DNA of 64,000 nucleotides from Oscillospiraceae bacterium (GCA_904501855.1 CAJGCI010000002.1:1182-65181); one strand, 5' to 3'. Counted from the stretch's first letter, positions 3,478 through 56,232 are shown. Notes: generated by a model not told the origin, from the sequence alone. Numbers and translations are program-made.

Positions 3478-4587
3478 TTATATCTGGACCCATTTGCGGC
3501 GGATTTTCGGATCCGGAGTGTAATGCTCAAAGATCACGGAATCGTAATGTTTCTCGTTGCCTTCCTCCCGGCTCGTCCAGCAGAAGCGCATCGCACCCAT
3601 CTTTTCCGACATCTTCACGGACATCGGCTGCTTGCCGATCTTATATGCCACAAACTGCGGACGGCTCATGAAATTGAGCAGCCCGTTGCCCACCAGGAAC
3701 GCTCCCACCGGGTGCAGTTCCTCTTTTTTGAAGTCTTTTGGCCGTTTAGCCAGCTGTCCGCGCACCACATGGGGTGCATGGAACCGGAACCATGCAACGA
3801 TCCTGGGGTCGAAACTTTCAATGCAGTAATCCCCTTTGTAGCTTTTCAGCAGTTTCAGCGTCTTTCTGCATAACTCCCGGTTCTTCTTTCCGCTTTTCAG
3901 CTCCACCAGCAGCGTACTCCGTCCGTCAACACAGTCAAGCACATCCGAAAACAGCGGCACGGTCTGATCTGTTCCGCACAGGTGGATCTTTTTAAGTTCA
4001 TCGTATGTCTTGGAATCCACTCGTCCCTTCACTCCGCAGACGCGTTTCAGGGTATTATCATGGAACACCACGACCTTACCGTCTTTGGAGAGCTGAACAT
4101 CCAGCTCGATGCCGTACCCGGCTTCCGCTGCCCGCCGGAATGCTTCCATGGAATTTTCCGGAACGCTCTTGTCCTTCGTATGCAGCCCGCGGTGGGCGTA
4201 ATTGACATTTTTAAACTTCGCCTTATCCTTTTTTCTCGCCTGTCCCGGTGTGATCAGGAACGCGGCGAAGCCAGCCATCAGCGCCGCATTGCGGGTAATA
4301 TGGTATTCCCGGTTGATGCGGACGGCTTTCCGCCGGATCGTATTGATCCGGTTGATCTTCTGTATCTTTTTTGCTTCTTCATTCAGAGCTGTTCTGGCAG
4401 TATGCACGGCAGCCGCGACTCTTCCTGCGTCGGCAGCTCCGGACATCACCTTTCCCTGAGCGGAGAGCTTTTGTACTTCCTTTTTCAGTTTCTTGTTGAC
4501 CTTCTTCAGCCGGGCATTCTTCTTGTATGTACGTTCCAGTTTTCGAAGATCCCGTTTCACGTTTTTCAACGAACTCACATTAATCAC
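3478..4587 (-). CDS. Membrane-anchored glycerophosphodiester phosphodiesterase (GDPD) family protein with a long basic N-terminal extension
   Basis: GDPD core motifs HRGLH...ENSMEAFRRA...IELDVQLSKDGKVVVFHD. One TM segment (LMAGFAAFLI) is preceded by about 100 aa rich in Lys/Arg. The exact start is uncertain: GTG 4587 or GTG 4578. Confidence 0.8.
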   Translation of the reverse strand: MINVSSLKNVKRDLRKLERTYKKNARLKKVNKKLKKEVQKLSAQGKVMSGAADAGRVAAAVHTARTALNEEAKKIQKINRINTIRRKAVRINREYHITRNAALMAGFAAFLITPGQARKKDKAKFKNVNYAHRGLHTKDKSVPENSMEAFRRAAEAGYGIELDVQLSKDGKVVVFHDNTLKRVCGVKGRVDSKTYDELKKIHLCGTDQTVPLFSDVLDCVDGRSTLLVELKSGKKNRELCRKTLKLLKSYKGDYCIESFDPRIVAWFRFHAPHVVRGQLAKRPKDFKKEELHPVGAFLVGNGLLNFMSRPQFVAYKIGKQPMSVKMSEKMGAMRFCWTSREEGNEKHYDSVIFEHYTPDPKIRRKWVQI

Positions 4588-4722: not shown

Positions 4723-6282
4723 TTGAAACTGAACTATAAACGCACGATCTGTGTGGGCTTTGCCTTTTTTCTGATCTGCGCATTCTGGCAAGCATATGAT
4801 AATACGATCCCGCTGATCCTGACCAACAAGTTTGGCATGAAGCAGACCTGGTCCGGTTTTATTATGGCGCTGGACAATATCCTTGCCCTGTTCCTGCTCC
4901 CTCTGTTCGGTTCTCTGTCGGACCGAAGCACCAGCCGGTTCGGACGGCGCACCCCGTTTATCGTCGCCGGCACACTGGTAGCGGTCGTGGCCTTTGTCGG
5001 ACTTTCCTTTGTGGATGCCGCTCAGCTGAAGCATCTGTCCGAGGTCTCCGCCATCGATGATCCCGTTGCCATGCAGACCATTTATTCCGCAGAACAGGAT
5101 CAGTCCCTTCTGACTCCGGAAGGTGATTCCTTCGTGCTTTCCGAACTGTATACCGCGGAGGAGTTCACGGCAATTCAGAGTCAGATCACTGAGGGCGATT
5201 CCACCATTACGAACCCGGATTATACCAATTATGTCGTCCCTGCACGTCAGGCGTATGCCTGGCAGACGACGGCGGAATCTCCCAGCACTCTGATATTCTT
5301 TATTCTTCTGTTGCTGATAGTTCTGGTATCCATGGCCATCGCACGATCTCCGGCTGTGGCGCTGATGCCGGACGTCACCATGAAGCCGCTCCGATCCAAG
5401 GCAAATGCCGTCATTAATCTCATGGGAAGCGCCGGCGGAATTCTGGTGCTGATCCTCGGAATGGTCTTTGCCACCAGTGCTGTTCGAAACTCCCTGATGA
5501 GCTATGTGGGATATTTCTCCACCATTGCCCTGATCATGATCATTGCTCTGGTAATCTTCCTCCTCACCGTCCGGGAACCCAAATTTGTGGCAGAAATGCA
5601 CAAGGACAGCGAGCGTTACGGTCTTCTGGAAGATGCCGATCCCGAAGAGGATCATGAACACAAAAAACTGGGGCCCGGCGAAAGGACTTCCCTGCTCCTG
5701 ATCCTGTCGTCCATTGTATTATGGTTTATGGGATACAACGCAATCACTTCCAAGTATTCCGTTTATGCCAGCAATATTCTCCACAAGGATTATAACTTCA
5801 CCCTGATCATTGCCCAGGCTGCAGCGATCATCTCCTACCTGCCCGTCGGCATCATTGCCTCCAAGATCGGCAGAAAGAAGACCATTATCGCGGGTGTCAT
5901 CATGCTGACAACAGCGTTCACCGCCGGTATCTTCATGCGGGCTGACAGTCCGACGCTGATCATGAACTGCATTTTTGCTCTTGCAGGAATCGCTTGGGCA
6001 ACGATCAACGTCAACTCCTTCCCCATGGTCGTGGAAATGTGTTCCGGCGGCGATGTGGGCAAATACACCGGCTATTATTATTCTGCTTCCATGGCAGCAC
6101 AGGTCGTTACACCGGTCTTTTCCGGTTATCTTATGGACAAGCTCGGTATGACGTCTCTGTTCCCATATGCTGCTATCTTTACCGGACTGGCCTTCTTCAC
6201 AATGCTCTTTGTCCGACACGGTGACTCAAGACCCGAAGCAAAACATGGGCTGGATGCGTTGGAAGATATGGATTCCGACTGA
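4723..6282 (+). CDS. MFS transporter (GPH/SLC45-like signature) with a large extra loop
   Basis: About 12 TM helices and GSLSDRSTSRFGRRTPF in the TM2-3 loop. An insertion of about 100 aa (residues ~95-195) is hydrophilic. TTG start with AGGAG 9 nt upstream. Confidence 0.8.
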   Translation: MKLNYKRTICVGFAFFLICAFWQAYDNTIPLILTNKFGMKQTWSGFIMALDNILALFLLPLFGSLSDRSTSRFGRRTPFIVAGTLVAVVAFVGLSFVDAAQLKHLSEVSAIDDPVAMQTIYSAEQDQSLLTPEGDSFVLSELYTAEEFTAIQSQITEGDSTITNPDYTNYVVPARQAYAWQTTAESPSTLIFFILLLLIVLVSMAIARSPAVALMPDVTMKPLRSKANAVINLMGSAGGILVLILGMVFATSAVRNSLMSYVGYFSTIALIMIIALVIFLLTVREPKFVAEMHKDSERYGLLEDADPEEDHEHKKLGPGERTSLLLILSSIVLWFMGYNAITSKYSVYASNILHKDYNFTLIIAQAAAIISYLPVGIIASKIGRKKTIIAGVIMLTTAFTAGIFMRADSPTLIMNCIFALAGIAWATINVNSFPMVVEMCSGGDVGKYTGYYYSASMAAQVVTPVFSGYLMDKLGMTSLFPYAAIFTGLAFFTMLFVRHGDSRPEAKHGLDALEDMDSD

Positions 6283-6305
6283 CAGAACACTGATAATCAA
6301 TAATA

Positions 6306-6347
6306 ATACGCAGGACCGTTTCTGACCGTGTCCTGCGTATTTCTTTT
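6306..6347. terminator. Bidirectional terminator between the MFS gene and the end of the orphan operon
   Basis: Perfect 11-bp stem atacgcaggac/gtcctgcgtat followed by ttctttttt on the plus strand. On the minus strand it starts 8 nt after the stop of the last operon gene. Confidence 0.7.
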
Positions 6348-7757
6348 TTATTTCAGCCGTTTATCCAGTGAATCCGGAATGATGTTTACGTGCTCGATGC
6401 GCTCATGCCGAAGCACCTTCTGATTGTACTGTTCAACGGCGGCTTCAACGGATCGGGCTGGATCTTTCACATAAAGATCTGCCGACAGCCGGTCACGGAC
6501 AAGGGTCAGATCTGCGCGGTGAATATTGGGATCAAGCGCACACAGCATTTCCGACAATGCCGTCACATCCATGGTCTCACCGTTGGAGCCCACCAGCGTT
6601 TTCTTCTTCCTCTGGAGCACGATCAGTTTGCCGTTTCGGATCTTGCCGATATCTCCGGTGTGGAAGTATCCGTTTTCATCAAAACACTCTTCTGTCAGCT
6701 GTTCATCCAGGTATCCGAGAAAGACATTTTCTCCCTTTACAATAATCTCCCCGACGCCCTGTTCATCCGGATCGAAGATTCTGGCATCAATGTTGGAGAA
6801 GATCGTACCGGCGCTGTCATCGTCCTGATCTCCCGGATAATCGATGGAGAAAGAGGCGGCAGTTTCGGACATTCCGAAAGCCTGCAGCATGGGAAGTCCG
6901 CGATAGGCTCTTCGAAGTTCCTTCGGGCATGGTGCCCCGCTGCAGAAAAGGAAGCGGATCCTTGACCCAAAAGCCTGCCCGATCTGATCTCCGTACTGAT
7001 CCAGCAGTTTCTTATACACAAGCGGAACCGCGCAGAAGAAGGTGGGCTGTGACTCCAGCAGTTCCTCCGCAATCTTTGAAGTGGACGATGCCAGGAAGAT
7101 CTGGTACCCGTCAATTAGAGACAAATAATAACAGTAGCAGCTGGCGTATACATGATTCAGAGGAAGAAACAGGTACACCCTGTCTTCCGTCGTATACTGG
7201 ACTCTCTTGGACAGCTCCGAATAGCCGAAAAAGATATTTCTCAGTGACAGCTGGACGCCTTTGGACGGCCCTGTTGTTCCGGAAGAGAACACGATTTTGC
7301 TGCAGACATCCGGATCCCGGGATGAAAGATGGAACAATTGTTCACTTTCCGGCAGGTGCGGGATCTCATCAAAGCAGAGCGTCCGGATCTTCATCGTCTC
7401 CGGGATCTTCCGAACGGTCTCTTCCTTCTCCGACGCATACAGGATCGCTCTGGCGCCGATGGCTTCTGCGAGCTTCCGAACGCTTTCCCCTTTCATATCT
7501 TTGGCTACCACAACGCTGATTCCCACAAATGCTGTAACGGCAAGATCCGCCACCATCAGGGAATAGGAATTTCTCCCGTAGATAATGACCTTTTCATCCG
7601 CCAGCCCGAGCCGGAGCAGGTACTCCGCCAGGCGATAGGTGTCTTCGGTGAACTGACCAAACGTCGTTCCCTCAAATCGTCCCTGTACCTTCTGGAAGAT
7701 ATACTGGTTGTTTTTCCATTTCTGGTAATCTTCTTTCAGCAGCTTATTGACATCCAC
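6348..7757 (-). CDS. AMP-forming adenylating enzyme (ANL superfamily), operon gene 8
   Basis: FSSGTTGPSKGV (A3/P-loop motif) and YFHTGDIG...GKLIVLQRKKK (A7/A8-like). 469 aa, which is shorter than typical acyl-CoA synthetases. Confidence 0.8.
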   Translation of the reverse strand: MDVNKLLKEDYQKWKNNQYIFQKVQGRFEGTTFGQFTEDTYRLAEYLLRLGLADEKVIIYGRNSYSLMVADLAVTAFVGISVVVAKDMKGESVRKLAEAIGARAILYASEKEETVRKIPETMKIRTLCFDEIPHLPESEQLFHLSSRDPDVCSKIVFSSGTTGPSKGVQLSLRNIFFGYSELSKRVQYTTEDRVYLFLPLNHVYASCYCYYLSLIDGYQIFLASSTSKIAEELLESQPTFFCAVPLVYKKLLDQYGDQIGQAFGSRIRFLFCSGAPCPKELRRAYRGLPMLQAFGMSETAASFSIDYPGDQDDDSAGTIFSNIDARIFDPDEQGVGEIIVKGENVFLGYLDEQLTEECFDENGYFHTGDIGKIRNGKLIVLQRKKKTLVGSNGETMDVTALSEMLCALDPNIHRADLTLVRDRLSADLYVKDPARSVEAAVEQYNQKVLRHERIEHVNIIPDSLDKRLK

Positions 7758-9186
7758 GTTTCTGTTCCTTTTCTACAAGTTTTTTCAGCTTCAGATAATT
7801 GATCTTCGTATGGTGCTTGATGTCTTTGGGAATGGGGTCCAGGCACACCACCTTGGCTTCCAGCCGGTAGTGCTCCCGGAGGAAGCTTCGGATCATCTCC
7901 GGTTCTGTGCTGCTCTTTTCATAAAACAGGACCGTTTCTCCGTTCTGGTATACAACTGCACATTTCGGGATCGCCGGGAACTGAAGGATCACCTGCTGTT
8001 CGATCTCATTTGCACAGAGCTGCTGTCCCTCGACGGGGACATAAAATCCGTGCTTTCCACGATACAGAAGCCTTTCTTCTTTCAGCATCCCCACATCGTG
8101 AGTGTCATAGTATCCGTCCTGCAGGCGGATGTCCTCAAAGGACTTCGTGAGAAGCGCATCGCTTCGTACCAGGATATGCCCGTTGTCATCGATCCGGACT
8201 GAAACGCCGTCACACACTCTTCCCAGGGAACAGATCCCTTCTTCTTTCAGGTCGCGGATGAATTCATCCAGCGTATTCATGGCTATGAGATTACACTCTG
8301 TGGAGCCGTAAATATAAATGATCCTGCAGTCAGGATATTTTTCCTTTATGATCTCCGCCTCATGGAGGTTCAGGACCGCGCCGCCGAAATACATCAGTTC
8401 CAGGTGCGGATACATATTGGGTGTGCGCAGACAGAAATCCGGGGACGTCATGATCCGGGTGATGGCCAGATCCTGGAACTTCTCCAGCTTGCGAATGATC
8501 TTTTCCGTATTCTTCCTGCCCAGATTCACGTTGGGAATGGCAGTCGTCATGCCCTGGATAAGGTTTGAAAAGATATAGATATAGGACGTCGTAAGAACGA
8601 TATCCTCATTCTTTTTCGCTTCATTGTTTCTGGTCGTCAGGCGAAGCTGCTCATACAGATCGCCATGAGACCGGAGAAACAGTTTCGGCGTCCCGGTCGA
8701 TCCAGTCGTTACTGTTATCAGCCCGGCCGCGTCTTCTTCGATCTCATCCGGAACATACTCCTTTTCCGGACGCTCACTGTAAACGTGATCGATATTGATC
8801 ACGCTGCGGATCTCCCGGAAAGCCGGAAATGCATTCCTTGCCAGCTTTGTGTGGTTGGAAACCAGGATGTGATGCGGTCTGGTCTTTTGAAAAATCTCCT
8901 GCAGACTTTCCTGTTTTGCATAGATGTCCACGTACATGACGGAAACACCCATGCACATAGTCGCCAGCATGAACAGACACAGCGTGTAGCCGGAACTGGT
9001 AAATGTAAGGACCCGGTCTCCGGACTGTACGCCGTGATGATGCAGTACCGATACCATTTCTTCGACTTCTTTTCTCAGTTCCGCAAAGGTCCGGCTCTCC
9101 CGCCTGTTTTTCCGGAGATAATACACCGCAGTGCGTTCTTTGTTCTCCTCGCACGATTTATAGAATTCCTGTACAATCCTGCTCAT
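7744..9186 (-). CDS. AMP-forming adenylating enzyme (ANL superfamily), operon gene 7
   Basis: VTTGSTGTPKLF (A3 motif), YGSTE (A5-like) and YYDTHDVG...YRGK (A7/A8-like). 480 aa. Overlaps the next gene by 14 nt. Confidence 0.8.
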   Translation of the reverse strand: MSRIVQEFYKSCEENKERTAVYYLRKNRRESRTFAELRKEVEEMVSVLHHHGVQSGDRVLTFTSSGYTLCLFMLATMCMGVSVMYVDIYAKQESLQEIFQKTRPHHILVSNHTKLARNAFPAFREIRSVINIDHVYSERPEKEYVPDEIEEDAAGLITVTTGSTGTPKLFLRSHGDLYEQLRLTTRNNEAKKNEDIVLTTSYIYIFSNLIQGMTTAIPNVNLGRKNTEKIIRKLEKFQDLAITRIMTSPDFCLRTPNMYPHLELMYFGGAVLNLHEAEIIKEKYPDCRIIYIYGSTECNLIAMNTLDEFIRDLKEEGICSLGRVCDGVSVRIDDNGHILVRSDALLTKSFEDIRLQDGYYDTHDVGMLKEERLLYRGKHGFYVPVEGQQLCANEIEQQVILQFPAIPKCAVVYQNGETVLFYEKSSTEPEMIRSFLREHYRLEAKVVCLDPIPKDIKHHTKINYLKLKKLVEKEQKRGCQ

Positions 9187-10253
9187 TTGTTCTCCCCAAC
9201 TTCGTAGACCACAAAATCACGGTAGAAATAAGACTTTGTTGCCATGGTCTGCCGTTCGGACAGCTCTTTCAGATAACGGAACTCCGTTCCCGGCAGATAT
9301 CGGCGGTTCTGCATGTTGTAATAGGCAACGCGGGCACCGGGTACAGAAAGCTCCCGGAGTTTCTGAATGTTCTCTTCAAACTGTTCCTCGCTCATATATT
9401 CGAAAATATCGGAAAGGTTGAAGAATCCGTACCTGCCGTCAAGTTCCTGCAGGGTGCCTCGTTTCACTTCGATGCGGTCCAGCCGGCTGCGTATCGTTTC
9501 ATGAAACTGCTCCTGCAGATAATACGGGAGCGCGTCTTCGGTAAACTGATTGGTCAGGACATAGGTCATGTAGGGGTTGTTCCAGTTTGGAATCCTTCCC
9601 ATTCCGGAATCCGCTGTCTTCTTGATGTTGGATGCGCTGTTCTCCTTGTCCTCCACATAATTGTAAAATGCACGGTCGCGCCCCAGTTTTCCCATCATGC
9701 GGAAGCCGAAGAACACCTTGAATATCGCTTTCATCCTCCGGTTGTTGACCCAGCGGTCATAATACTTTTTCTGTGCTTCGATATCATGAAATGCGGCCAG
9801 TTTTGCCATTTTTCTTTTCGTTGTGAACAGCGGAACCACCCGGTCGCGGAAGATCTGAAAGTATCGTTCAAATTTTCCGATATGGACGATCCCTTTTTCA
9901 AAGAATTCCGGATGTTCGTAAAAGTACCGGAACGCTTCCGGATCCATCACCGGTTCCAGAGACTGAAACAGCGCCCAGGACCGCTCTGTCCCTCCGATTC
10001 CGAGGAGGGCCAGAAGATCTCTGTGACTGAGCATCTCAAATCCCGCTTTTTTCAGGTAAAAAAGATGGATCTGGGTCGGGTTGATATCAAATGCCGTTAT
10101 CGATTCCGGGTCTCCCAGCAGCATGGCGAGAGTATTGTCTCCTGCAGAAAGGATGGACGCTCCTCTCCGTCCCCGAATCTCCAGTGATTTCAGCAGATTT
10201 TCCGAGTCCTCCCAGCAGTTCGAATAACGTATAAAATCAAATTTCGCTTCCAT
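9183..10253 (-). CDS. DUF3419 / BtaA-like putative S-adenosylmethionine 3-amino-3-carboxypropyl transferase, operon gene 6
   Basis: N-terminal YSNCWEDSE followed by ILSAGDNTLAML, which resembles the BtaA/DUF3419 signature (xQCWEDP ... SxGxN). 356 aa. Confidence 0.65.
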   Translation of the reverse strand: MEAKFDFIRYSNCWEDSENLLKSLEIRGRRGASILSAGDNTLAMLLGDPESITAFDINPTQIHLFYLKKAGFEMLSHRDLLALLGIGGTERSWALFQSLEPVMDPEAFRYFYEHPEFFEKGIVHIGKFERYFQIFRDRVVPLFTTKRKMAKLAAFHDIEAQKKYYDRWVNNRRMKAIFKVFFGFRMMGKLGRDRAFYNYVEDKENSASNIKKTADSGMGRIPNWNNPYMTYVLTNQFTEDALPYYLQEQFHETIRSRLDRIEVKRGTLQELDGRYGFFNLSDIFEYMSEEQFEENIQKLRELSVPGARVAYYNMQNRRYLPGTEFRYLKELSERQTMATKSYFYRDFVVYEVGENK

Positions 10254-12804
10254 GTTGATGCCTCTCCAAAATCTCGATGGTTCCGTTGATGCCGTCTACC
10301 CGCACCTTGTCTCCGTCATGGATCTGCTCCGTCAGGCCGCGGACGCCCACCACAAGGGGTATGCCCATCTCCCGTGCGATTACGGCGGAATGGGACAGAA
10401 CGCTTCCCCGTTCGATAATGATTGCCTCTGCCATGGGGAACAGAATGGTCCATCCCGGATCGGTTCGCTTTGCCATCAGGATGTGACCTTGAAGGAACGG
10501 ATCTTCCGGATCCTCGACATAACAGACGATACCTTCTGTGGCCTTTCCTCCTCCGGCAACGCCCCGGAGCACACCTTCCTCCGGTGCTGTTTCCTGCTGG
10601 CTGTATATCGGGATCATGTTTTCTCTGCAGATATCTCCATAGAAATACATCCGCTCAAACGTTTCTTTTTTCTTGTTTTCGCGGTATTCTTCTTTTCTTC
10701 CTTCAATCCGCTGACGGACATCGTCGGTCAGCGTTCCCTGAACTATTTCCGTGATCTCATCCTTTTCCAGATAGAAGATATCCCGGTAATGGTCAATGCG
10801 TCCTTCCTGTTCAAAATTTCTTCCGATCCCGAGGAAGATATTTCGAACGATGTCATAGATATAGGTCCTTCTCAGACGAAGCCGTTCCCGGTTACGTATA
10901 AAGAATTTGGTAATTCGGATGAGCAGCCGGACTTTCGGCCGTTCCAGCGGCTTGTAACACTGATAGATCTGCTGTTCCCGGTCTTCACCCGGTGTGTTTT
11001 CCTGCCCGAGGTTTTTTGCCGGATTCATTGCCAGATAGTTTTTTATCGTCTGGAACAGAAATGCCGGATCCTCCGTCATGGTGATGGTCTCAAGTTTCAG
11101 CTCATCCATGCTGCGGGATCCGAATCGGCGGATATAGTCCTTCAGCTTTTCCGCGATCTCGCTTCCGTCCTCCAGAGAAAACTCGTCATTCAGAACGCGC
11201 TGTTTCAGATCGCTGTCCCCGCGGATTTCTTCCACGATATCCAGCAGATCTGTCGTCTGCTTTGCGCTCTCAACATTTCCCTGACGGCTGAGCACGCTGC
11301 TCAGCGCGCCTTCACTGTCCGGGACACCGTGCTGCTGCAGGCTGTCCGTCAGCTTTCCGTAGAACACCATCGCGCCCATGTCATTCCCAATGGGCGTGGT
11401 AAATTCGTCCAGGATCTTTTCCTCCAGTTCTCCGTAGATTCCCAGTAGATCCTGACTGCTCAAGCCTTCAAATCTCTGATTCTGATATGGGCCTGTCACT
11501 TCTTCAAACCGGCGGAGAAACGCATCGCTGTCTTTCTTCATCCGGATCATTTTCTTCAAAAACTGCCGGTGGATCCTTGCTGCTCGTTCATTTGCCTGTT
11601 CCTCGGTTTCGACCAGCGGGACTTTAACTCCCATCATCTTCTCCATGTATCCCTTGTTCTTATCGTATCCCGGATACAGAGAAGTCATCCGATACCAGCT
11701 GTTCAGCTTGTAGTAGACCTTGTTTTCAAAAAAGACCAGCATGTTATTCAGATCATCATCCACATCACGAAGGACATCCTCGCTGACCAGAAAATTTCTG
11801 GCTGTCTGGTGATAGATCTTTCCGTATACTTCCTTTGCAAAGGTAAATGTCAGCGGTGTGGTCACACCGGAATAGCTCTCAATGATATTGGAATTGTCCA
11901 GGATCGTGCGCGGCTTCCGAAGATCCAGATGGCTGTATGCTGTAATGGCACGGCACTGCAGAAACCATATCGCGGAATCCTTTATGGCAAACTCCATGTC
12001 CTGACCCACTTTCGGATCATAACTGTCCTCTATGATCCTTGCCTGTCGGGCAAGTGTCCGGATTACATCCTCCGACAACCCGCTTTCCCCGTTTTTGAGG
12101 ATCTGTTCCTGCAGGTCGACAACATAATCCATGCTGTCTTTCTCGCCGGATACCAGCTGTTCGCCCAGGCCTTTCACGACGCTGATCAGTGTTTCATCGG
12201 GATTGTTCGTGTTGGGGTTGACCGTAAACAGAACCCCTGCATAATCCGCATCCACCATCTCCTGGATGATCACCGCAGCGGCGATCTCCCGGTTGATCAG
12301 ACCATGCTGCTGCCTGTAAGCCATGATACGGGGAGAGAAACAGGATCGGTAGCAGTCACAGATCGCCTTTTCGATCTCTTCTTCCGTGCTGACATTGAGC
12401 GTGGACTCCATCATTCCGGCAAAAGACTGATCTGCAGAGTCCTCATCCACGGCACTGGACCGCACAGCGACCTTCTCCGCACCGGCTAGTTCCTGTGTCA
12501 GGGCATCCTGAAGAAGATTCCTCTGCGCATCGGAAAAGCGGCAACGGTCTAGCAGTGCGAGGATCTTCTCCCTGGATTCCTCCTGATAATCGGCCAGAAG
12601 CCCCTCGTATTCCTCGCGGTGGTCTCCAAGAAACTCATAAAAGAACTCCGTAGTCAGACAGATCCATCGAGGCACGGAAATATCCGGAATGGTGTTCAGA
12701 TGTCCCAGATTATAGGCCTTTCCTCCTACTTTCCGCCGGGATAATTCTTCGCCTCTGCCATTCCAAATTGCGGTTTTTTCTGAATGGTTGTTCTTTCTTG
12801 ACAT
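10237..12804 (-). CDS. PEP-utilising / PPDK-N family phosphotransferase with rifampicin-phosphotransferase-like three-domain architecture, operon gene 5
   Basis: N-terminal ATP-grasp signature GGKAYNLGHL. The C-terminal swivelling phosphohistidine domain reads RTDPGW...ERGSVLSHSAVIAREMGIPLVVGV. 855 aa with a long central region and no recognisable PEP/pyruvate TIM barrel. Confidence 0.8.
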   Translation of the reverse strand: MSRKNNHSEKTAIWNGRGEELSRRKVGGKAYNLGHLNTIPDISVPRWICLTTEFFYEFLGDHREEYEGLLADYQEESREKILALLDRCRFSDAQRNLLQDALTQELAGAEKVAVRSSAVDEDSADQSFAGMMESTLNVSTEEEIEKAICDCYRSCFSPRIMAYRQQHGLINREIAAAVIIQEMVDADYAGVLFTVNPNTNNPDETLISVVKGLGEQLVSGEKDSMDYVVDLQEQILKNGESGLSEDVIRTLARQARIIEDSYDPKVGQDMEFAIKDSAIWFLQCRAITAYSHLDLRKPRTILDNSNIIESYSGVTTPLTFTFAKEVYGKIYHQTARNFLVSEDVLRDVDDDLNNMLVFFENKVYYKLNSWYRMTSLYPGYDKNKGYMEKMMGVKVPLVETEEQANERAARIHRQFLKKMIRMKKDSDAFLRRFEEVTGPYQNQRFEGLSSQDLLGIYGELEEKILDEFTTPIGNDMGAMVFYGKLTDSLQQHGVPDSEGALSSVLSRQGNVESAKQTTDLLDIVEEIRGDSDLKQRVLNDEFSLEDGSEIAEKLKDYIRRFGSRSMDELKLETITMTEDPAFLFQTIKNYLAMNPAKNLGQENTPGEDREQQIYQCYKPLERPKVRLLIRITKFFIRNRERLRLRRTYIYDIVRNIFLGIGRNFEQEGRIDHYRDIFYLEKDEITEIVQGTLTDDVRQRIEGRKEEYRENKKKETFERMYFYGDICRENMIPIYSQQETAPEEGVLRGVAGGGKATEGIVCYVEDPEDPFLQGHILMAKRTDPGWTILFPMAEAIIIERGSVLSHSAVIAREMGIPLVVGVRGLTEQIHDGDKVRVDGINGTIEILERHQHGSEI

Positions 12805-12852
12805 GCCTTGTCCGTTCCTTCCCGTTTTTCGTTCTTCATAGAAAATAGTTTT

Positions 12853-13338
12853 CTATTGCTCCGCCTCATTTTTGCGACGGCGCAGTTTGTACAAGTGAAA
12901 ACCTGCCGCGAGAACCAGACACACTCCCGCCGTGATCAGCGTCCGTTGGTCCTTCCATCCGAGATACATACTGAGATAGTAAAAGGTCAGAAGCGGCAGA
13001 AACAGCAGTTTCAGCGGCTCGACCCGGTTCATCCATGCCAGATATCCCAGCAGCAGAATGCTGGCCAGTCCGGGAATCCGGAAAAAAACAAGATGCAGCA
13101 GCAGAAAGACCGCCGCAAGTCCGATGATCAGGCTCCTCAGCTGCTGCCTGGTCAGCGGTTTTTCTTTTCTGTCCGTATCATAATCCAGATAGTCATCTGC
13201 CGCGCGTACCAGATAGAACGTACACAGGGCAACCGGGAGCATTTCCCAGCAGAAATGCCCCGTGACTATGCTGTAGAGGCCTGCGGCGATGACTGCCCCA
13301 ATGCCGTACACCCAGTAGTTCAGAAAGTACTTCGTCAT
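12853..13338 (-). CDS. Small polytopic membrane protein with a UbiA-like Asp-rich motif, operon gene 4
   Basis: 161 aa with 5-6 predicted TM segments. RAADDYLDYDTDRK fits DxxDxxxD, the first Asp-rich motif of UbiA-superfamily prenyltransferases. Its start overlaps the upstream stop by 4 nt. Confidence 0.55.
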   Translation of the reverse strand: MTKYFLNYWVYGIGAVIAAGLYSIVTGHFCWEMLPVALCTFYLVRAADDYLDYDTDRKEKPLTRQQLRSLIIGLAAVFLLLHLVFFRIPGLASILLLGYLAWMNRVEPLKLLFLPLLTFYYLSMYLGWKDQRTLITAGVCLVLAAGFHLYKLRRRKNEAEQ

Positions 13339-14390
13339 TTCCGTTTTCTCTTATAGAGCTCCGCCTTTGCCAGGAGAATGGTCGGGCTGACCTTTGCGTA
13401 CCTGCACAGTTCCTTCAGTTCTTCTTTCGGTTTTTCTACCATCTGTTCCTGCTCCAGCATCTCCAGCGCTTCCTCCCGGGACATCATTCCCATCCGTATC
13501 AGCACGCTGATCTCCGGCAGTCGGTGAGGCCTGCCCTCTGCACACTGATAGATATACTTTGTGGCATTGTGAATGGAGCAGTCATAGTGGTTATAGTCTT
13601 CGGGGGGCGTCCATCCTGTTTCCTCTTTCAGAAACCGGACGATCTCCTTTTCATCATATCGGTAATAGAGAAAATAGGGTACGAACTCCCGGAATTCAAT
13701 TCCATCCACCCCGTCGAACGCTATGCTCCGAATATCGTTGTAAATTCCTTCGTCCACTTTTTCCCGGACGCTTTCCAGCAGACCGGCATAGCTTTCCGCA
13801 ATGTCGATCTCGTGGATGCTCTTCAATCCCATGTCCACGAATCTGGTAAAGACATCATTGCCGTATCTTCGCAGCATCTGTTCCGGAGATCTGCCGTGAA
13901 CACACATACCTGCATCCACTTTTACGGCATAGTTGATCATCGCTGCATATCCCGTATAGGAACATGCGATACACGGAACCAGGAAATGCTTCATGGAATA
14001 ATGATACTGCCTCTGCTGCATGGCCCGGTCAAAAGTGATGTACTCGTGATCGACTCCGTATGTCCGCACCGTCTTGTCGATGTTCTTTTTGGCCTCCTTG
14101 GACAGAAAGCCGTTATCCAGTGTAAACGTGCAGACATGCAGACCGTGTTTTCGGACCAGCTCATGCAGGACAAATTCGCTGTCTTTTCCTCCGGAGATTC
14201 CCAGGGCTGCATCGTACCGGTGCTTGCCGCGCACTGCATCCACACGTTCCTGAAACAACTGGTGAAGTGCATTTTCATCCTCCAGTTGAGCTCCGATTTT
14301 CTCATAGTTTCGACAGAAGTTGCACACACCGGAGGAATCAAACGAGATCCCGCGGACAGTCTCGTCGTTCAGACATCTTTTACATCTCAT
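13335..14390 (-). CDS. PP-loop ATP pyrophosphatase, N-acetyl-sugar amidotransferase (WbpG/PseA-like) family, operon gene 3
   Basis: N-terminal Cys-pair ribbon CKRC...CNFC, followed by the PP-loop GISGGKDSEF. 351 aa. Confidence 0.75.
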   Translation of the reverse strand: MRCKRCLNDETVRGISFDSSGVCNFCRNYEKIGAQLEDENALHQLFQERVDAVRGKHRYDAALGISGGKDSEFVLHELVRKHGLHVCTFTLDNGFLSKEAKKNIDKTVRTYGVDHEYITFDRAMQQRQYHYSMKHFLVPCIACSYTGYAAMINYAVKVDAGMCVHGRSPEQMLRRYGNDVFTRFVDMGLKSIHEIDIAESYAGLLESVREKVDEGIYNDIRSIAFDGVDGIEFREFVPYFLYYRYDEKEIVRFLKEETGWTPPEDYNHYDCSIHNATKYIYQCAEGRPHRLPEISVLIRMGMMSREEALEMLEQEQMVEKPKEELKELCRYAKVSPTILLAKAELYKRKRK

Positions 14391-15277
14391 TCTGTCAGCT
14401 CCTTTACAAATACCGCATACCGTTTTTCCTGATCTTCCACAGTGCTGTCATAGCGTTTGAATGTGCTTCGCTGCTCACACTGGAAATGGTAGACGGTCTG
14501 GTCATAGCCCAGCTCTCGAACAAATTTTGTTCCGAAATACAGCAGTGCAACGTACAGTTTCTGCTTCTGAAACTCTTTCCGCACCCCTACCGTTTTCGAG
14601 ATATACTGAGCTGGATCGTATGGGTTTGCATAGCTCATCACATACCCGGCGGCTCTCCCGTCTTTAAAAGCTGCAAAAACATGGATCTCGGGAATCTTTT
14701 TGGTCCATTCCAGATAGATTTCCTGAAACACCTCAAAGGGAATCTCCGAATACAGAAGGCTTCCCTGAAACGCATCGATGGAGACATCAAAAATGTCTTT
14801 TACGATCTGATAGGATTCTTCTCCCCGGTAGAGTTTGAAGTCAAATCCTTCCTTCTGCTTTTTCCGGAAGATCTCTTCGCCGGACTCAAACAGAACATTG
14901 TTTGTGTTGATGTGAGCGCTTCGATAGGTGTACAGCTCCCGGTATCCCAGCTGTCGGATAAAATCAACATAGTACGGCGGGTTCTCGCAGTCGGGATAGT
15001 ATTTCTGATCATACTGGCTGATCGCCCATCGATAGCTCATCCACGTCGTATAATTCACCGGTCCGATCAGATGCTTCTGCCCCAGTTCCCGGGCTCTCGC
15101 TTCCACTTTTCGGAACAGCTCTTTCACTTCCTCCAGATCATCGGAAAATTCCGCAAATCCGAACATGCATGGGTACTCTTCCAGTTTGTTGTTAATGATC
15201 AGGTAACAGGAGGATCTTCCTTGCTCAAAGTATTCCTTGTAGTCTGCAAGCTGCAGGATGGCCAGTTCCTTATTCAT
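14387..15277 (-). CDS. Hypothetical protein, possibly a GNAT-fold acyltransferase, operon gene 2
   Basis: 296 aa. The C-terminal half contains a degenerate motif-A-like segment, VGVRKEFQKQKLYVALLY. There are no other strong motifs, so the assignment is weak. Confidence 0.45.
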   Translation of the reverse strand: MNKELAILQLADYKEYFEQGRSSCYLIINNKLEEYPCMFGFAEFSDDLEEVKELFRKVEARARELGQKHLIGPVNYTTWMSYRWAISQYDQKYYPDCENPPYYVDFIRQLGYRELYTYRSAHINTNNVLFESGEEIFRKKQKEGFDFKLYRGEESYQIVKDIFDVSIDAFQGSLLYSEIPFEVFQEIYLEWTKKIPEIHVFAAFKDGRAAGYVMSYANPYDPAQYISKTVGVRKEFQKQKLYVALLYFGTKFVRELGYDQTVYHFQCEQRSTFKRYDSTVEDQEKRYAVFVKELTE

Positions 15278-16359
15278 AGTAGTCCTCTCTCTCCTTCCTT
15301 CTGCTGAAAAAGATCCAGCAGGCGATTTGTGTTGATGAGAAGCTGTTCAATAAAATCAATTTCGATGGATTCGGAGACGATCCTCAGCAGGCTCAGTCTG
15401 TTGACGATGAACTCCCTGATACAGAAGAGTACCCGATCAAGGTATTCCTGTTCCGTCAGATCATACGGAGATTCTTCCCTCAGCCGGCAGTAGTACCGGT
15501 GAAGAAGCTCCCGGATCTCCTCATCCGAAACGGTCCCGCACTCATAAACAAGCAGTTCCGCAACGTCGTGCTCCGGAATCTGATAACAGGCCAGTTCAAA
15601 ATCATAAAACATGACCTCCTCTCCCTGAACAAAAAAGTTGCGGGATGAGAAATCATTGTGCGTCAGCGTTTTAAACGCGCTGTGGCGTTCCTCTTCCTCA
15701 TGGATCCTGTCAATAAAGGCGTGGATCTCTCGAATCCGTTCCGTTCCGTATGTGCGGTTGTTCTCTTCTTCCCGGAGATCAAACATCATATGAAGGCACG
15801 GTCTTGCTTTGTAATAGTCTCTGCTGCTGTATTTGTTCAGCTGGAGTTCTGCGGCCGCATCTTCCTTTCCCATATAGAAGATGTGAAACGGAAGGATCCG
15901 ATCCAGTACCGCCTGAAGATCCCCTGCATTCAGCTCTTTCTCTTTCCAGACATAGTACTTGAACAGCAGATTTCTCGTGCCGCTCCGGTGATCGTTGTAA
16001 CAACCGTAATAATCGATCATGGCATTTTTCAGCGACGGTTCGATCCCCCGGTAAAGAACATCTTCCCGGAGATAGCTTTGGTCATATCCCAGTACTTTCC
16101 TGTGAAGCAGCAGCTCCTTCATCAGCCGGAAATCTTTGCCGCTTACAAGATTGATGCCGTTCTTCACCACGTTGTTGGATTTGATCTTCATCAGCAGTTC
16201 CGCAGTCTTTCCGTCATCAAACTCAACATCGATATGGTAGATTCCGCAGCGCTTCAAGGCGACCAGATTGTTGATGCTGGATATCCCCTCCAGCTCTCTT
16301 TTTTCCATGTGCCGGATCTTTTTGTTCATGATCCGCGCAATCTGTTTTTCTTCCCTCAT
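15274..16359 (-). CDS. Protein-kinase-fold small-molecule phosphotransferase (APH / choline-ethanolamine kinase family), operon gene 1
   Basis: Catalytic loop LTHNDFSSRNFF (HxDxxxxN) and metal-binding YDFE. The ATG at 16359 is preferred because AGGAG lies 5 nt upstream; the ORF track extends to 16494, across a terminator. Confidence 0.7.
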   Translation of the reverse strand: MREEKQIARIMNKKIRHMEKRELEGISSINNLVALKRCGIYHIDVEFDDGKTAELLMKIKSNNVVKNGINLVSGKDFRLMKELLLHRKVLGYDQSYLREDVLYRGIEPSLKNAMIDYYGCYNDHRSGTRNLLFKYYVWKEKELNAGDLQAVLDRILPFHIFYMGKEDAAAELQLNKYSSRDYYKARPCLHMMFDLREEENNRTYGTERIREIHAFIDRIHEEEERHSAFKTLTHNDFSSRNFFVQGEEVMFYDFELACYQIPEHDVAELLVYECGTVSDEEIRELLHRYYCRLREESPYDLTEQEYLDRVLFCIREFIVNRLSLLRIVSESIEIDFIEQLLINTNRLLDLFQQKEGERGLL

Positions 16360-16482
16360 ATGGTTCTCCTGTGCGAGGTTTTTCTTTATATCTTTAAAAG
16401 ACGCAATAATAACCCATTTTTTCCTTTTTACCAAATTATTCTGTCTGATACAAGCGTTTGCCATATTTTCCCATGCAATATT

Positions 16483-16520
16483 AAAAAAGACCACCGTCAG
16501 CCGCCCGGCTGTCAGTGGTC
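16483..16520 (-). terminator. Intrinsic terminator after the DUF4914-like gene
   Basis: On the minus strand: gaccactgacagcc-gggc-ggctgacggtggtc (14-bp stem with one mismatch and one GU pair) followed by tttttt. Starts about 20 nt after the stop at 16540. Confidence 0.7.
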
Positions 16521-16539
16521 TTTGCTCTGTTTTTGGGGT

Positions 16540-18438
16540 TTACCGAATATTCATCGGTGTGATGGCAAGATATTCCTCCAGAGGAGCATCATTCAGTGCC
16601 AGTTCAATGATGTTGCGGCCGATGGGATTGAGCCCGTTGGTATTGAACGGGGCAATCTGCTCTTTGATAAAGTCGGTTAGGATCTTCGCACCGGCATCAT
16701 AGCCGTCAAAGCCGACCTTGGACTGCAGCTCCGGACGAAGGAACGTTCTGCGGATATGCTGTCCGTCGATCTTCATGTCGGCCAGGGAATACCCGAACAA
16801 CGGACAGCGTGCTTCCACCAGGTCCTTCATTCGGACATTGCCCGTTCTTCTGGCAAGATATTCTCTCACCAGCCACTCGCCGGCAAAACCGATGTGATAC
16901 GCACCGATATACTGGTTGGGGATCAGCACGTTCAGCGTCGCCTGCGTGTTCATCATCTGGTGAAGGAGCAGGTTTGCCTGGGTGATCTTCTGTCCTGTGG
17001 CGAAGGGCCAGTAGGAACCGACGCCCTCGGCCTTCAGTCCGCTTCCCGCATTGGAATCGGCAATGGAAGGATTCTTGAATCCGCGGGGGCACACCAGCCG
17101 CCACAGCCATGCCAGAGAGATGGGAACGAACTGAACCATTCCCATAATTCCGTAATTGGGATTTTCCACCGTGGAAGGCGGCATGCGGACTCCGAAGGAT
17201 CGGATATTGACTTCCACCGGTTCATTGCCGGGGATGATGTTGTCGATCATCTCCCGGGGGATGATTACCCGGGGATTCGTACAGGGCTTTCCGGTGGACT
17301 CTTCCACATGTTCCCAAATGAGACATGTCGCGCCTGGAACACCATCCATATTGAAGAATTCCAGCGGTTCCGGCGGGTGAATGCTGATCCGCTCATACAT
17401 GGGGCTGTTGCCGTAGTAGTTGTCGCCGTCCATCCGCAAAAACCAGCCGTCTTCCGCGTCCGCAATGACCAGATGTCCGGATCCGTTCTGCATGTCCTTA
17501 TGCGCAAGGACCATATCATCTGCGATCGGATGGATCTTGCAGGTCTCACTGATGGTCAGATAATGTTTCTCGCCGCTGACCGTGTGGGTTCCCACCAGGA
17601 TCTGTCCGTTTTCCTCCTTATGGATCTCCTCCAGCATCTCGCTTTTGCCGCCGCCGGATGCGCCCTCATGCATGAAAACGACTTCATTCTCATACGGTGT
17701 CTCCAGCAGTGCCGCAGATGCGTGGTTGGTGATCCACCCTTCATGCTCGCCGATATCCAGCAGCACGGAGAAAACGCCCTTCTTCGCAGACGGACCGGGA
17801 TACAGATTGTATGCAAACACTTCGTGCAGATCCTCACTGCGCTGATGGACGACTACCTGTTTTCCCTTAAAGTGTGTGACACGGAACGGCGGCGCCACAT
17901 AGATGATGGCGCGTGGCTTGTAGTTCTCCCCGATCTCATGGATGCCCACAAATCCCTGCATGTTGGCAAGAGAAAGAGCGAAGAATGCCGCATTGGAAGG
18001 ACATACCATCAGAGAATCATATCCGTAGTATTTTCCTCCGGCGCGGAAAGGCAGCAGGATCACGCTCTGATCCTTAAACCACTCCATGGTCTCTTTACGC
18101 AGTTTGGAAAACTCATATCCGTAACGGTCCTTAAAATACGGCTTGTCCGACGGCAGATCATCTCCGATGCACATGCAGTCGGGATCGCGGCGGCGCATAT
18201 AGTCTTCCATAAAGTTGACAACCGGGCCGTTTTTGCATCGTACGACCTCCGCTTCTTTAAAAACTCCCTTGCCGGGAATGGTATATGTAACATCGAACCG
18301 GGAGCTGTGTGTGGGTCCGAAACACAGTTCCTCCAGCTGTTCTTTGGTCTCCGGATAACAGCGCCACTGGCAGTTTGTCACAGCGTCGGTCAGGTCCTCC
18401 GGCAGAACAAATCGATTGAAATAGGAATCTATCAACAC
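16540..18438 (-). CDS. P-loop protein resembling the HprK/PEP-carboxykinase fold (likely the DUF4914 family)
   Basis: 632 aa. The Walker A HEGASGGGKSEMLEEI closely resembles the HPr kinase GDSGxGKSE and PEPCK GxSGTGKT loops. GTG start with AAGGTGA about 7 nt upstream. Confidence 0.65.
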   Translation of the reverse strand: MLIDSYFNRFVLPEDLTDAVTNCQWRCYPETKEQLEELCFGPTHSSRFDVTYTIPGKGVFKEAEVVRCKNGPVVNFMEDYMRRRDPDCMCIGDDLPSDKPYFKDRYGYEFSKLRKETMEWFKDQSVILLPFRAGGKYYGYDSLMVCPSNAAFFALSLANMQGFVGIHEIGENYKPRAIIYVAPPFRVTHFKGKQVVVHQRSEDLHEVFAYNLYPGPSAKKGVFSVLLDIGEHEGWITNHASAALLETPYENEVVFMHEGASGGGKSEMLEEIHKEENGQILVGTHTVSGEKHYLTISETCKIHPIADDMVLAHKDMQNGSGHLVIADAEDGWFLRMDGDNYYGNSPMYERISIHPPEPLEFFNMDGVPGATCLIWEHVEESTGKPCTNPRVIIPREMIDNIIPGNEPVEVNIRSFGVRMPPSTVENPNYGIMGMVQFVPISLAWLWRLVCPRGFKNPSIADSNAGSGLKAEGVGSYWPFATGQKITQANLLLHQMMNTQATLNVLIPNQYIGAYHIGFAGEWLVREYLARRTGNVRMKDLVEARCPLFGYSLADMKIDGQHIRRTFLRPELQSKVGFDGYDAGAKILTDFIKEQIAPFNTNGLNPIGRNIIELALNDAPLEEYLAITPMNIR

Positions 18439-18471
18439 AGTATTTCACCTTTTCTTTGTGAGATACTGTCG

Positions 18472-18500
18472 ATTCTACCATCGTTTTTGGTCAAGTTCAA
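18472..18500 (-). promoter_or_regulatory. Sigma-70-type promoter for the DUF4914-like gene
   Basis: Minus strand TTGAAC - 17 nt - TAGAAT, with TGg immediately upstream of the -10 (extended -10). Lies about 30 nt upstream of the start codon. Confidence 0.55.
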
Positions 18501-18642
18501 CGAGTAGATTAACTGAATTCTGTAACTTTCGCCCACTTTGTCTTTGTTGCTATTATCACAGTTTTCCGGCAAATAACGCGATTTGATCCTTTTTTCGCAC
18601 ATATTGTTCCGCAGAGATCCCGGTAACAGGCCAAAAATGCGC

Positions 18643-18680
18643 AAAAAACTGCCTCTGTACCACAACAGATACAGAGGCAG
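18643..18680 (-). terminator. Intrinsic terminator after the galactokinase-like gene
   Basis: Minus strand ctgcctctgta-loop-tacagaggcag (perfect 11 bp) followed by tttttt. Confidence 0.75.
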
Positions 18681-18692
18681 CTCCTATTTTAT

Positions 18693-19769
18693 TCAGATTT
18701 TCAGGACCTGGCAGGAACCGGCTCCGAACCGCGCCTCCATGCCCTTTTTATATTCTTCGAAATACTCGTGGGGCATCAGTGCCTGAACACATCCTGCAAA
18801 TCCGCCTCCGTGGACGCGCCATGCGCCTTTCCCTTCCAGCAGTTTTGCGCTCAGCTCCAGACCTTCTTCCAGCTTGGTATCTCCGGTGGCGCTGGTCACG
18901 ATATTATTCAGATACTGCTCCGAAGATCTGCCCGACGCATTCATAAGCTTCATGTACGTTTCCCCGTCTTTGCGGAGGAGGGCATCTCTCATTTTGGGAA
19001 CACGCTCGTTCTCATCGAAGAAGTGTTTTGCCCTGCGGACCGGCCGGTAGGACACATCCCATTCCCGGGATCGGAACTCCGCCGGATCGACCTCCGAAAG
19101 AACGCCTTTGTCAAAAAGACTCGCGATGTAGGTCATATCGGACGGGATCATCGCATAGGAGGTCTCAAGCCCGGCGTGACTGCCTCCCGTATTGGTCAGG
19201 CACAGTGTCAGGCCCATTTCATCGAATCTCGTTTCAATGGGGAGGATCTCATCGGTAGCGAAGTCCACGTATACACAGGATCCCAGAGAGCTTGCCAGCT
19301 GATCCATCAGTCCGCACGGCTTGCCGAAGTGCTGATTTTCCGCCTGCTGTGCCAGCCGTGCAATCACGATGGGCTCCAGTTTCCCGTCGTTGTAGTAAGC
19401 GTTGAGAATCTTTCCCATCAGCACCGCAAATGCCGCGGAGGAAGAAAGCCCCGAACCCGCCGGCAGATTGCTGGTCACGACCGCGTCAAACCCGCCGATA
19501 TCCAGACAGAAATCCTGCATTGCCGCGGCAACACCGCGAACCAGGGCTCTGGTTGTGCCGAATTCCTCCGGTTTGACATCCAGATATCTCAGACGGATCT
19601 CGTCCTCTCCAAAACCTTCGGACCGAATCCGGATAACATTGTCATTGTTCTTGACGCAGTGGGCTGTAAGACCGGTATCTACGGCAGCTGCAATGACACG
19701 TCCCTTTTGATGGTCGGTATGATTTCCTGCCAGCTCCGTGCGTCCGGGAGCAAAGAAAACATCACTCAT
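18693..19769 (-). CDS. GHMP kinase of the galactokinase family
   Basis: APGRTELAGNHTDHQKG resembles the galactokinase signature GRVNLIGEHTDY, and the GHMP ATP motif PAGSGLSSSAAF is present. 358 aa. There are no galT/galE neighbours. Confidence 0.75.
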   Translation of the reverse strand: MSDVFFAPGRTELAGNHTDHQKGRVIAAAVDTGLTAHCVKNNDNVIRIRSEGFGEDEIRLRYLDVKPEEFGTTRALVRGVAAAMQDFCLDIGGFDAVVTSNLPAGSGLSSSAAFAVLMGKILNAYYNDGKLEPIVIARLAQQAENQHFGKPCGLMDQLASSLGSCVYVDFATDEILPIETRFDEMGLTLCLTNTGGSHAGLETSYAMIPSDMTYIASLFDKGVLSEVDPAEFRSREWDVSYRPVRRAKHFFDENERVPKMRDALLRKDGETYMKLMNASGRSSEQYLNNIVTSATGDTKLEEGLELSAKLLEGKGAWRVHGGGFAGCVQALMPHEYFEEYKKGMEARFGAGSCQVLKI

Positions 19770-56143: not shown

Positions 56144-56232
56144 TGGTGCCGGTAGCCGGGGTCGAACCGGCACGATGTTTTATCATCGAGGGATTTTAAG
56201 TCCCTTGCGTCTGCCAATTCCGCCATACCGGC
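56144..56232 (-). tRNA. tRNA-Leu (anticodon UAA), type II with long variable arm, CCA encoded
   Basis: Hand-folded reverse complement. Acceptor stem GCCGGTA/TACCGGC; anticodon stem AGGGA/TCCCT with loop CTTAAAA; variable arm CGATG-ATAAAA-CATCG; T arm GCCGG-TTCGACC-CCGGC; discriminator A then CCA. Confidence 0.9.

Follow-up and report, generated by a model that had tools for sequence, protein, structure and literature searches.

What might eight tightly coupled genes for ATP-consuming tailoring enzymes, which fit no recognisable pathway, be making together? The question is raised by an operon in a 64,000-nucleotide (nt) stretch of Oscillospiraceae bacterium DNA (GCA_904501855.1, CAJGCI010000002.1:1182-65181), the whole of which is referred to here as the window. 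From 16359 to 6348, the minus strand carries eight intact open reading frames (ORFs) that form one coupled operon, with junctions in transcription order of 4-, 4- and 4-nt overlaps, a 48-nt gap and overlaps of 17, 4 and 14 nt. These ORFs, their overlaps and the single gap had been described in a first-pass annotation made from the sequence, and we recovered the same coordinates and junctions exactly. The genes encode, in order, an APH/choline-kinase-fold kinase, a tandem GNAT, a PP-loop enzyme, a small membrane protein, a dikinase, a DUF3419 protein and two ANL adenylating enzymes. We conclude that the cassette is a biosynthetic operon that has yet to be characterised and does not amount to a new category of system, because each component belongs or relates to a known family, though several miss the thresholds for a named function. 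The operon is self-contained and appears to have moved horizontally over evolutionary time; most likely it works at the cytoplasmic membrane, where it would make a cell-associated compound linked to a lipid or prenyl group.

A census that scanned one genome per species, with the tandem-GNAT (gene 2) profile as cassette marker, found cassette loci in 48 species-level genomes. Hidden Markov model (HMM) searches revealed the order kinase, GNAT, PP-loop, membrane protein, dikinase, DUF3419, ANL, ANL in nearly all 48 loci, an arrangement far beyond chance, so that the possibility raised in the first-pass annotation, that these genes are never co-localised elsewhere, is answered by their neighbourhoods. 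The operon had also been called an orphan, which holds in that no described pathway accounts for it; it is not rare, however, given its recurrence across these genomes. Among the Oscillospiraceae and Ruminococcus the hosts come from rumen and gut, and among the Lachnospiraceae (Catonella morbi ATCC 51271, Johnsonella and Oribacterium F0262) from the mouth; Filifactor, Tissierellia and uncultured Bacilli are further hosts, and about ten are metagenome-assembled genomes (MAGs) of Candidatus Saccharibacteria. In one Saccharibacteria MAG the cassette lies on a 735-kb contig, and a further copy of Saccharibacteria type is on a contig of 706 kb; the cassette takes up about 1% of these roughly 0.7-Mb genomes, and its retention there argues for an important envelope or interaction function. 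The closest relatives of the window organism are rumen Ruminococcaceae/Oscillospiraceae MAGs (92-95% identity).

The flanks of the cassette are unrelated between lineages. Clustering of the flanking ORFs across all loci returned lineage-specific synteny only, and no transporter, regulator or immunity gene was conserved with the cassette across the 48 loci. The guanine-plus-cytosine (GC) content of the cassette tracks that of the host over a range of 0.35 to 0.56, and in the window it is 0.500 against 0.518 in the flanks. Recent transfer judged by composition was rejected, since cassette GC matches host GC. The earlier description of the locus as an accessory island is partly supported, by its variable genomic context across lineages; composition gives no signal of it. 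Neighbour-joining trees place the Saccharibacteria copies among Clostridia copies on long branches, which indicates a probable old horizontal exchange followed by retention. The ratio of nonsynonymous to synonymous substitution rates (dN/dS) against two close relatives was 0.04-0.23 for all eight genes; purifying selection thus acts on every one of them, and the possibility that several are pseudogenes, named in the first-pass annotation, was rejected. In two uncultured Catonella MAGs (loci L030 and L055) every cassette gene is split into several frames. We tentatively put these frameshifts down to assembly error, not decay, because they span every gene and the copy in the cultured Catonella morbi (L031) is intact.

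Comparison of the loci also delimited the part of the cassette that does not vary. Several cassettes have no kinase gene, L056 has no PP-loop gene, and gene 8 is missing from some Saccharibacteria and stands at the operon front in Lachnospiraceae. Two loci, L037 and L044, retain only the kinase, GNAT, dikinase and DUF3419 genes. These losses leave an invariant core of the tandem GNAT, the Rph/PigC-type dikinase and the DUF3419 protein; the kinase, PP-loop, membrane protein and ANL genes can each be dispensed with in one lineage or another, and the eight genes are accordingly not the minimal unit. Lineage-specific insertions were seen at two loci: in Filifactor villosus (L039, 15025-16118) two small GNAT-like ORFs lie between the dikinase and DUF3419 genes, and in Oribacterium (L051, 17482-18774) an opposite-strand gene resembling a family-2 glycosyltransferase lies between DUF3419 and the first ANL gene.

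The eight family calls made earlier from motifs were each reproduced by HMM searches, and the catalytic motifs of all seven enzymes are conserved (34-48 homologues per gene). Five of the enzymes use ATP and have intact motifs, in agreement with the ATP cost foreseen for the pathway. Within the core, gene 2 (14387-15277, minus strand, 296 aa) is only just recognisable as a GNAT from its sequence (Pfam Acetyltransf_1, 22.2 bits, cutoff 20.7). A profile search of the PDB with it was uninformative, so that a fold search was needed. The AlphaFold2 (AF2) model of the protein (predicted local distance difference test score, pLDDT, 91) gave tandem GNATs as the top Foldseek matches with probability 1.0, led by 2WPW, 7Q3A and 3FRM. 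The matches comprised the CoA-dependent tandem GNATs CBG (the clavulanate-pathway protein), MAB_4324, Eis and MshD, with TM-scores of 0.5-0.58, as well as the aminoacyl-tRNA users FemX, MprF and Sba18, with about 0.4-0.45 to MprF and FemX. We therefore predict with high confidence from the model that gene 2 encodes two GNAT folds in one chain, in a putative acyl- or aminoacyltransferase. It shares the predicted two-domain fold of MshD, CBG, Eis, FemX, MprF and Sba18, but is only about 10% identical to each, and the glycines that bind the CoA pyrophosphate are replaced: the canonical acetyl-CoA motif Q/R-x-x-G-x-G/A is missing from the cassette family, which has Q-K-x-K-[LI]-Y instead. A near-canonical QGYKIG is retained in the GNAT of a Brevibacillus variant described below. 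The donor could be an acyl-CoA, an acyl-AMP or an aminoacyl-tRNA.

Gene 5 (10237-12804, minus strand, 855 aa) consists of an ATP-grasp domain, a central substrate domain (Rph_4th) and a swivelling-His domain (Pfam PPDK_N and PEP-utilizers), and its His motif SHSAV.ARE, with the swivel His at about residue 805, is conserved. The search for a phosphoenolpyruvate (PEP)/pyruvate TIM barrel (PEP-utilizers_C) was negative, only PPDK_N, Rph_4th and the mobile His domain being found, and gene 5 scored below the cutoff of all PEP synthase equivalogs. The best PDB match was the Listeria rifampin phosphotransferase (5FBS/5HV1). Gene 5 thus has the same three-part architecture as Rph and the PigC/RedH condensing enzymes, which likewise have no PEP/pyruvate TIM barrel, but it falls far below the cutoffs for Rph (NF041857, 249 against 999 bits), PigC (263 against 1300) and RedH (271 against 1350), and its central domain has strongly conserved motifs of its own.

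The third core member, gene 6 (9183-10253, minus strand, 356 aa), matched the Pfam family DUF3419 (PF11899) with 199.6 bits against a cutoff of 28.2, its residues 4-338 aligning to positions 5-362 of the 385-position profile, and had 4011 homologues at E <= 1e-10. BtaA, the S-adenosylmethionine (SAM):diacylglycerol 3-amino-3-carboxypropyl transferase, is a member of DUF3419, and gene 6 is presumed to encode a SAM-dependent transferase too. Its match to the family of BtaA spans the full length, and a lipid acceptor would fit the membrane partners discussed below. The cassette nevertheless differs from the BtaA/BtaB pathway to the betaine lipid diacylglyceryltrimethylhomoserine (DGTS) in that no BtaB-like methyltransferase gene was found in any cassette locus and DUF3419 is always coupled to the dikinase and the tandem GNAT. 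A DUF3419 match on a Rhizobium sp. plasmid (L067, pMK-2, CP041205.1 98102-107127) was rejected as a bona fide btaA/btaB pair, since it sits in another, co-directional cluster, with genes for β-ketoacyl-acyl-carrier-protein synthase III (KAS III), an NAD(P) oxidoreductase, a metallo-β-lactamase (MBL) hydrolase, an F390-synthetase-like adenylating enzyme and a hypothetical protein. DUF3419 genes thus also neighbour adenylating enzymes in settings other than betaine-lipid operons.

The membrane protein, which is polytopic, is encoded by gene 4 (12853-13338, minus strand, 161 aa), for which a UbiA-type DxxDxxxD motif had been noted. Alignment of 27 homologues confirmed it as part of an invariant R..DDxxDxxxD that follows helix 2. 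UbiA enzymes have two Asp-rich motifs and about 8-9 transmembrane helices, whereas gene 4 has one such motif and about 5-6 helices. The window protein had no match to Pfam PF01040, and its homologues scored 10-18 bits against a cutoff of 34.2; six of the 27 family members gave such sub-threshold UbiA matches, to either half of the UbiA profile. A PDB profile search with gene 4 gave nothing, and its AF2 model was poor (pLDDT 55, from a shallow alignment). The family HMM, however, matched the N-terminal half of a full-length UbiA from Roseinatronobacter (E = 3e-7), and hhalign of the family against the UbiA motif region gave a probability of 81% (E = 1.3e-5). The full-length UbiA of the distant cassette variants occupies the same cassette position as gene 4. 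By these alignments the gene 4 family is homologous to the N-terminal half of the distant-variant UbiAs, and gene 4 would be a half-size UbiA unit, possibly a dimer. Compared with members of the superfamily of the DGGGPS, MenA and EboC types, it places R..D[DE]xxDxxxD at the end of helix 2, as in the first Asp-rich motif of UbiA, but it is about 160 aa long, has one Asp-rich motif instead of two and lies below the Pfam UbiA threshold.

The remaining four genes supply activating and tailoring functions. Gene 1 (15274-16359, minus strand, 361 aa) matched Pfam APH with 37.1 bits (cutoff 23.2), as expected of a small-molecule kinase of this fold, and its HNDxxxRN and D-x-E motifs are conserved in 41 homologues. 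Gene 3 (13335-14390, minus strand, 351 aa) aligned over its full length to TIGR03573 (WbuX, E = 1e-47), its 163.3 bits remaining under the curated cutoff of 203.2, and its best PDB match was 8wex (E = 3e-6). It belongs to the PP-loop superfamily, with GISGGKDS in at least 95% of 43 homologues and a conserved N-terminal Cys ribbon (CxxC...CxxC). The full-length alignment, the SGGKDS motif and the Cys ribbon are shared with the WbuX/WbpG/PseA amidotransferases; the cassette differs from their systems in that neither genes for nucleotide sugars nor a glutaminase partner of the HisH/HisF type lie nearby, and in that gene 3 is dispensable in some cassettes. Genes 7 (7744-9186, minus strand, 480 aa) and 8 (6348-7757, minus strand, 469 aa) matched the AMP-binding Pfam family with 105 and 182 bits, respectively, and conserve TGSTGxPK and SSGTTGxxKG (A3), YGxTE and GxSET (A5) and TGD (A7). 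The product of gene 7 is a divergent ANL enzyme of the PRK09274/OleC-like type, weakly nearest to DltA in the PDB, in which the A3, A5 and A10-like Lys motifs are conserved. The product of gene 8, an adenylating enzyme or CoA ligase, is nearest to MenE and to malonyl- and oxalyl-CoA synthetases, and it scored 144.8 bits against the MenE cutoff of 330 (TIGR01923).

More distant cassettes, found by tblastn of plasmid records with gene 6, show which partners the core keeps elsewhere. A plasmid of Roseinatronobacter sp. S2 carries genes for UbiA, the dikinase, DUF3419, a 439-aa membrane protein, the tandem GNAT and an ANL enzyme, and Brevibacillus laterosporus B9 has 3-hydroxy-3-methylglutaryl-CoA (HMG-CoA) reductase, UbiA, dikinase, DUF3419, the 439-aa membrane protein, tandem GNAT, ANL and P450. 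Alone, the 439-aa protein had no Pfam, NCBIfam or PDB match; it is linked to CTP_transf_1, the CdsA/dolichol-kinase/phytol-kinase family, only through a fusion. When the whole library was searched with the GNAT profile, which matched 35 representatives at E <= 1e-30 and 1089 at E <= 1e-10, one protein, P0290, proved to be a CTP_transf_1::GNAT fusion followed by an ANL gene, and the 439-aa protein aligns to its N-terminal CTP_transf_1 domain (E = 3e-6). P0232 and five others were fusions of a HAD phosphatase to the GNAT, and in L061 such a fusion stands where the APH kinase would be, the cassette being typical in all other respects; this replacement in a sister clade suggests a phospho-ester intermediate. 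At L065, an 823-aa fusion of an ANL1-type enzyme to UbiA stands beside the dikinase, GNAT and DUF3419 genes. Next to it (1-1338) is a partial gene with an NAD-binding domain of the Shikimate_DH/semialdehyde-dehydrogenase type; together with the Brevibacillus HMG-CoA reductase, this dehydrogenase hints at a thioester or acyl reductase associated with some variants. The core is thus tied repeatedly, both genetically and by fusion, to an ANL enzyme and a UbiA-type membrane protein, and the links to UbiA, CTP_transf_1 and ANL::UbiA indicate that this soluble core works with membrane enzymes of lipid or prenyl-phosphate metabolism. A head group on a lipid or prenyl carrier, the first of two options offered by the first-pass annotation, has thus gained support from the full-length UbiA, the HMG-CoA reductase, the CTP_transf_1-type protein and the ANL::UbiA fusion, while the product itself is still something we infer.

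We tentatively favour a pathway that works at the membrane and yields an amphipathic, cell-bound molecule; its head group would derive from SAM and be acylated, amidated and phosphorylated. In such a pathway, whose steps are all read from the enzyme families, gene 4 would bind or transfer a (di)phosphorylated lipid or prenyl substrate through its Mg-binding Asp motif, and the DUF3419 protein would move the 3-amino-3-carboxypropyl group of SAM onto an acceptor hydroxyl, in the way that BtaA modifies diacylglycerol. One or both ANL enzymes would activate carboxylic acids, that for gene 7 being fatty-acid-like and that for gene 8 small or dicarboxylic, and the tandem GNAT would transfer the acyl group from the ANL-activated acid to the new amine. 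The PP-loop enzyme would adenylate a carbonyl or carboxyl group and then amidate it, and the dikinase and APH kinase would phosphorylate or activate hydroxyl or carbonyl groups. In diphthamide formation, aminocarboxypropyl transfer by Dph2 is followed by amidation by the PP-loop enzyme Dph6. By analogy only, the cassette too would pair a SAM aminocarboxypropyl-type transferase with a PP-loop amidating enzyme; the enzyme families of the transfer step are unrelated, however, and no protein substrate is indicated for the cassette. A more specific proposal is possible but doubtful: a new class of membrane lipid or prenyl conjugate whose aminocarboxypropyl head group is N-acylated, amidated and phosphorylated with the help of a half-size UbiA-type transferase and a carrier-free ANL enzyme, as a trait that Saccharibacteria and the Clostridia of rumen, gut and mouth would have exchanged and that the Saccharibacteria would have kept as part of their envelope.

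Several observations weigh against this pathway. The four-gene versions at L037 and L044 have neither the membrane protein nor the two ANL enzymes, and the core chemistry may therefore be soluble, while the P450 and HMG-CoA reductase give the Brevibacillus variant the look of a secondary-metabolite cluster. The cassette subfamily of DUF3419 is 23-35% identical to the other DUF3419 proteins found, and to our knowledge the family has one characterised activity, that of BtaA. The donor used by gene 2 is uncertain because the CoA-binding glycines are replaced (QKxKxY), and the window copy of gene 4 gives no UbiA match itself, the support coming from its family. The product, the substrate and the activity of every cassette member are predictions from sequence.

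Whether the product stays in the membrane or leaves the cell separates this pathway from one to a secondary metabolite that is diffusible and possibly carries a prenyl group, for example a signal, an antibiotic or a metallophore. HMG-CoA reductase and P450, as in Brevibacillus, are typical of natural-product clusters, PigC/RedH and tambjamine-type condensing enzymes have the dikinase architecture, and ANL plus GNAT chemistry suits amide-linked small molecules; an MFS gene converges on the window operon and ABC transporters lie nearby in several loci. A transporter, regulator or immunity gene kept with the cassette is nevertheless missing across the 48 loci, and the UbiA and CTP_transf_1 partners and fusions indicate a lipid-phase substrate. 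Saccharibacteria rarely retain secondary metabolism, and yet they devote about a hundredth of their small genomes to the cassette. On balance we regard a secondary metabolite as rather unlikely.

Decoration of an envelope polymer or lipid-linked precursor (peptidoglycan, lipid II, teichoic acid or surface glycan), much as in the Dlt, MprF, Fem or Lic systems, would account for the matches of the gene 2 model to FemX and the MprF synthase domain, for the weak resemblance of gene 7 to DltA and for the PP-loop enzyme, whose nearest family amidates N-acetyl sugars of surface glycans, and the hosts are all host-associated with a Gram-positive-type envelope. This explanation is weakened, to the point of being quite unlikely, by the lack, within the cassette or conserved in its vicinity, of any carrier protein, MBOAT, glycosyltransferase, nucleotidyltransferase or flippase, by the sub-cutoff WbuX score of a PP-loop gene that some cassettes do without, and by the higher TM-scores of gene 2 to CoA-dependent tandem GNATs than to MprF and FemX. 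That APH, Eis-like GNAT and Rph-like enzymes are adjacent by chance in a multi-drug resistance island is highly improbable: rifampin phosphotransferase is indeed among the PDB and NCBIfam relatives, and the Eis-like and APH folds are present, but all resistance equivalog cutoffs lie far above the scores (for Rph, 249 against 999 bits), the strict coupling and fixed order with DUF3419, PP-loop, membrane protein and two ANL genes hold over 48 genomes, and the HAD::GNAT, CTP_transf_1::GNAT and ANL::UbiA fusions make sense only for a pathway. An anti-phage defence system was rejected, since none of the eight proteins had a PADLOC match.

The boundaries of the operon in the window were examined as well. 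Gene 1 most likely starts at the ATG at 16359, which is preceded by the predicted ribosome-binding site AGGAGA (16370-16365); the ORF can be extended to a GTG at 16494, and the gene calls on the identical public contig take the ATG. Upstream lies a spacer of 180 nt (16360-16539) that houses the intrinsic terminator of the preceding DUF4914 gene, a hairpin with a T-run on the minus strand (16480..16521, -23.6 kcal/mol, z = -4.4). Two overlapping, weak candidates for sigma-70-like promoters lie at 16406..16464 on the minus strand, with 9/12 consensus matches each, the number of such sites being not above shuffled expectation. At the other end, a hairpin at 6305..6341 is a predicted bidirectional terminator, with -22.8 kcal/mol on the minus strand (z = -7.4) and -21.6 kcal/mol on the plus strand. 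It is common to the operon and to a gene for a 519-aa MFS transporter (MFS_1_like, 4723-6282, plus strand), which converges on the operon and uses the same 3′ hairpin; the better U-tract is on the plus strand, that is, on the MFS-gene side. The folds confirm both the terminator-bearing spacer and the strong 3′ hairpin reported in the first-pass annotation, and its single coupled operon is supported by the junctions and the bracketing hairpins. Inside the operon we likewise found neither a carrier protein nor a condensation domain, and no gene for a glycosyltransferase, a regulator or mobility. The statement that there was no exporter holds for the operon itself but not for its surroundings, given the immediately adjoining, convergent MFS gene, which is not kept beside the cassette in other lineages. 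Rfam searches of the window and four other loci detected no riboswitch or T-box upstream; the sole Rfam match in the window was a tRNA gene (56147-56232, minus strand).

Some neighbouring genes were recorded. Co-directional and immediately upstream of the operon (16540-19769, minus strand) are a gene for a GHMP (GalK-like) kinase, an ORF of 77 aa and the gene for the DUF4914 protein, which is 631 aa long and has the P-loop-like motif GASGGGKSE; this set recurs beside the cassette only in the two closest relatives (L011 and L045). Four loci have a gene for a glycerophosphodiester phosphodiesterase (GDPD) only a few kb from the cassette, namely the window (3478-4587, minus strand), L037 (4153-4848), L044 and L047, the latter three from Saccharibacteria; this may be a coincidence or a hint of a glycerophospholipid link, the cases being too few to count. 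In Catonella morbi (L031, 8275-8358) a D1-D4 fragment of a group II intron was noted upstream of the cassette kinase gene, at a distance of about 0.5 kb.

No published description of the cassette was found in the full-text literature searched, and in the literature on gene clusters DUF3419 appeared in one paper, where it is listed as a flanking gene only. The literature, PADLOC and Rfam searches together returned no described system, in keeping with the earlier statement that no characterised pathway combines these enzymes. All the component families are familiar; it is their combination with a GNAT-dikinase-DUF3419 core that lacks a counterpart in that literature. Cultured carriers are at hand in Catonella morbi ATCC 51271, Filifactor villosus CCUG 46385 and Oribacterium sp. 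F0262, with Brevibacillus laterosporus B9 for the distant variant. The interest of the cassette lies in its breadth across host-associated anaerobes of rumen, gut and mouth and in its presence in the ultra-small genomes of Saccharibacteria, as well as in the half-size UbiA-like protein and in the fact that carriers are in culture. A solved product would test whether the half-size UbiA unit is catalytic, and would give the large DUF3419 family a second function and the Rph-like dikinase a natural substrate.

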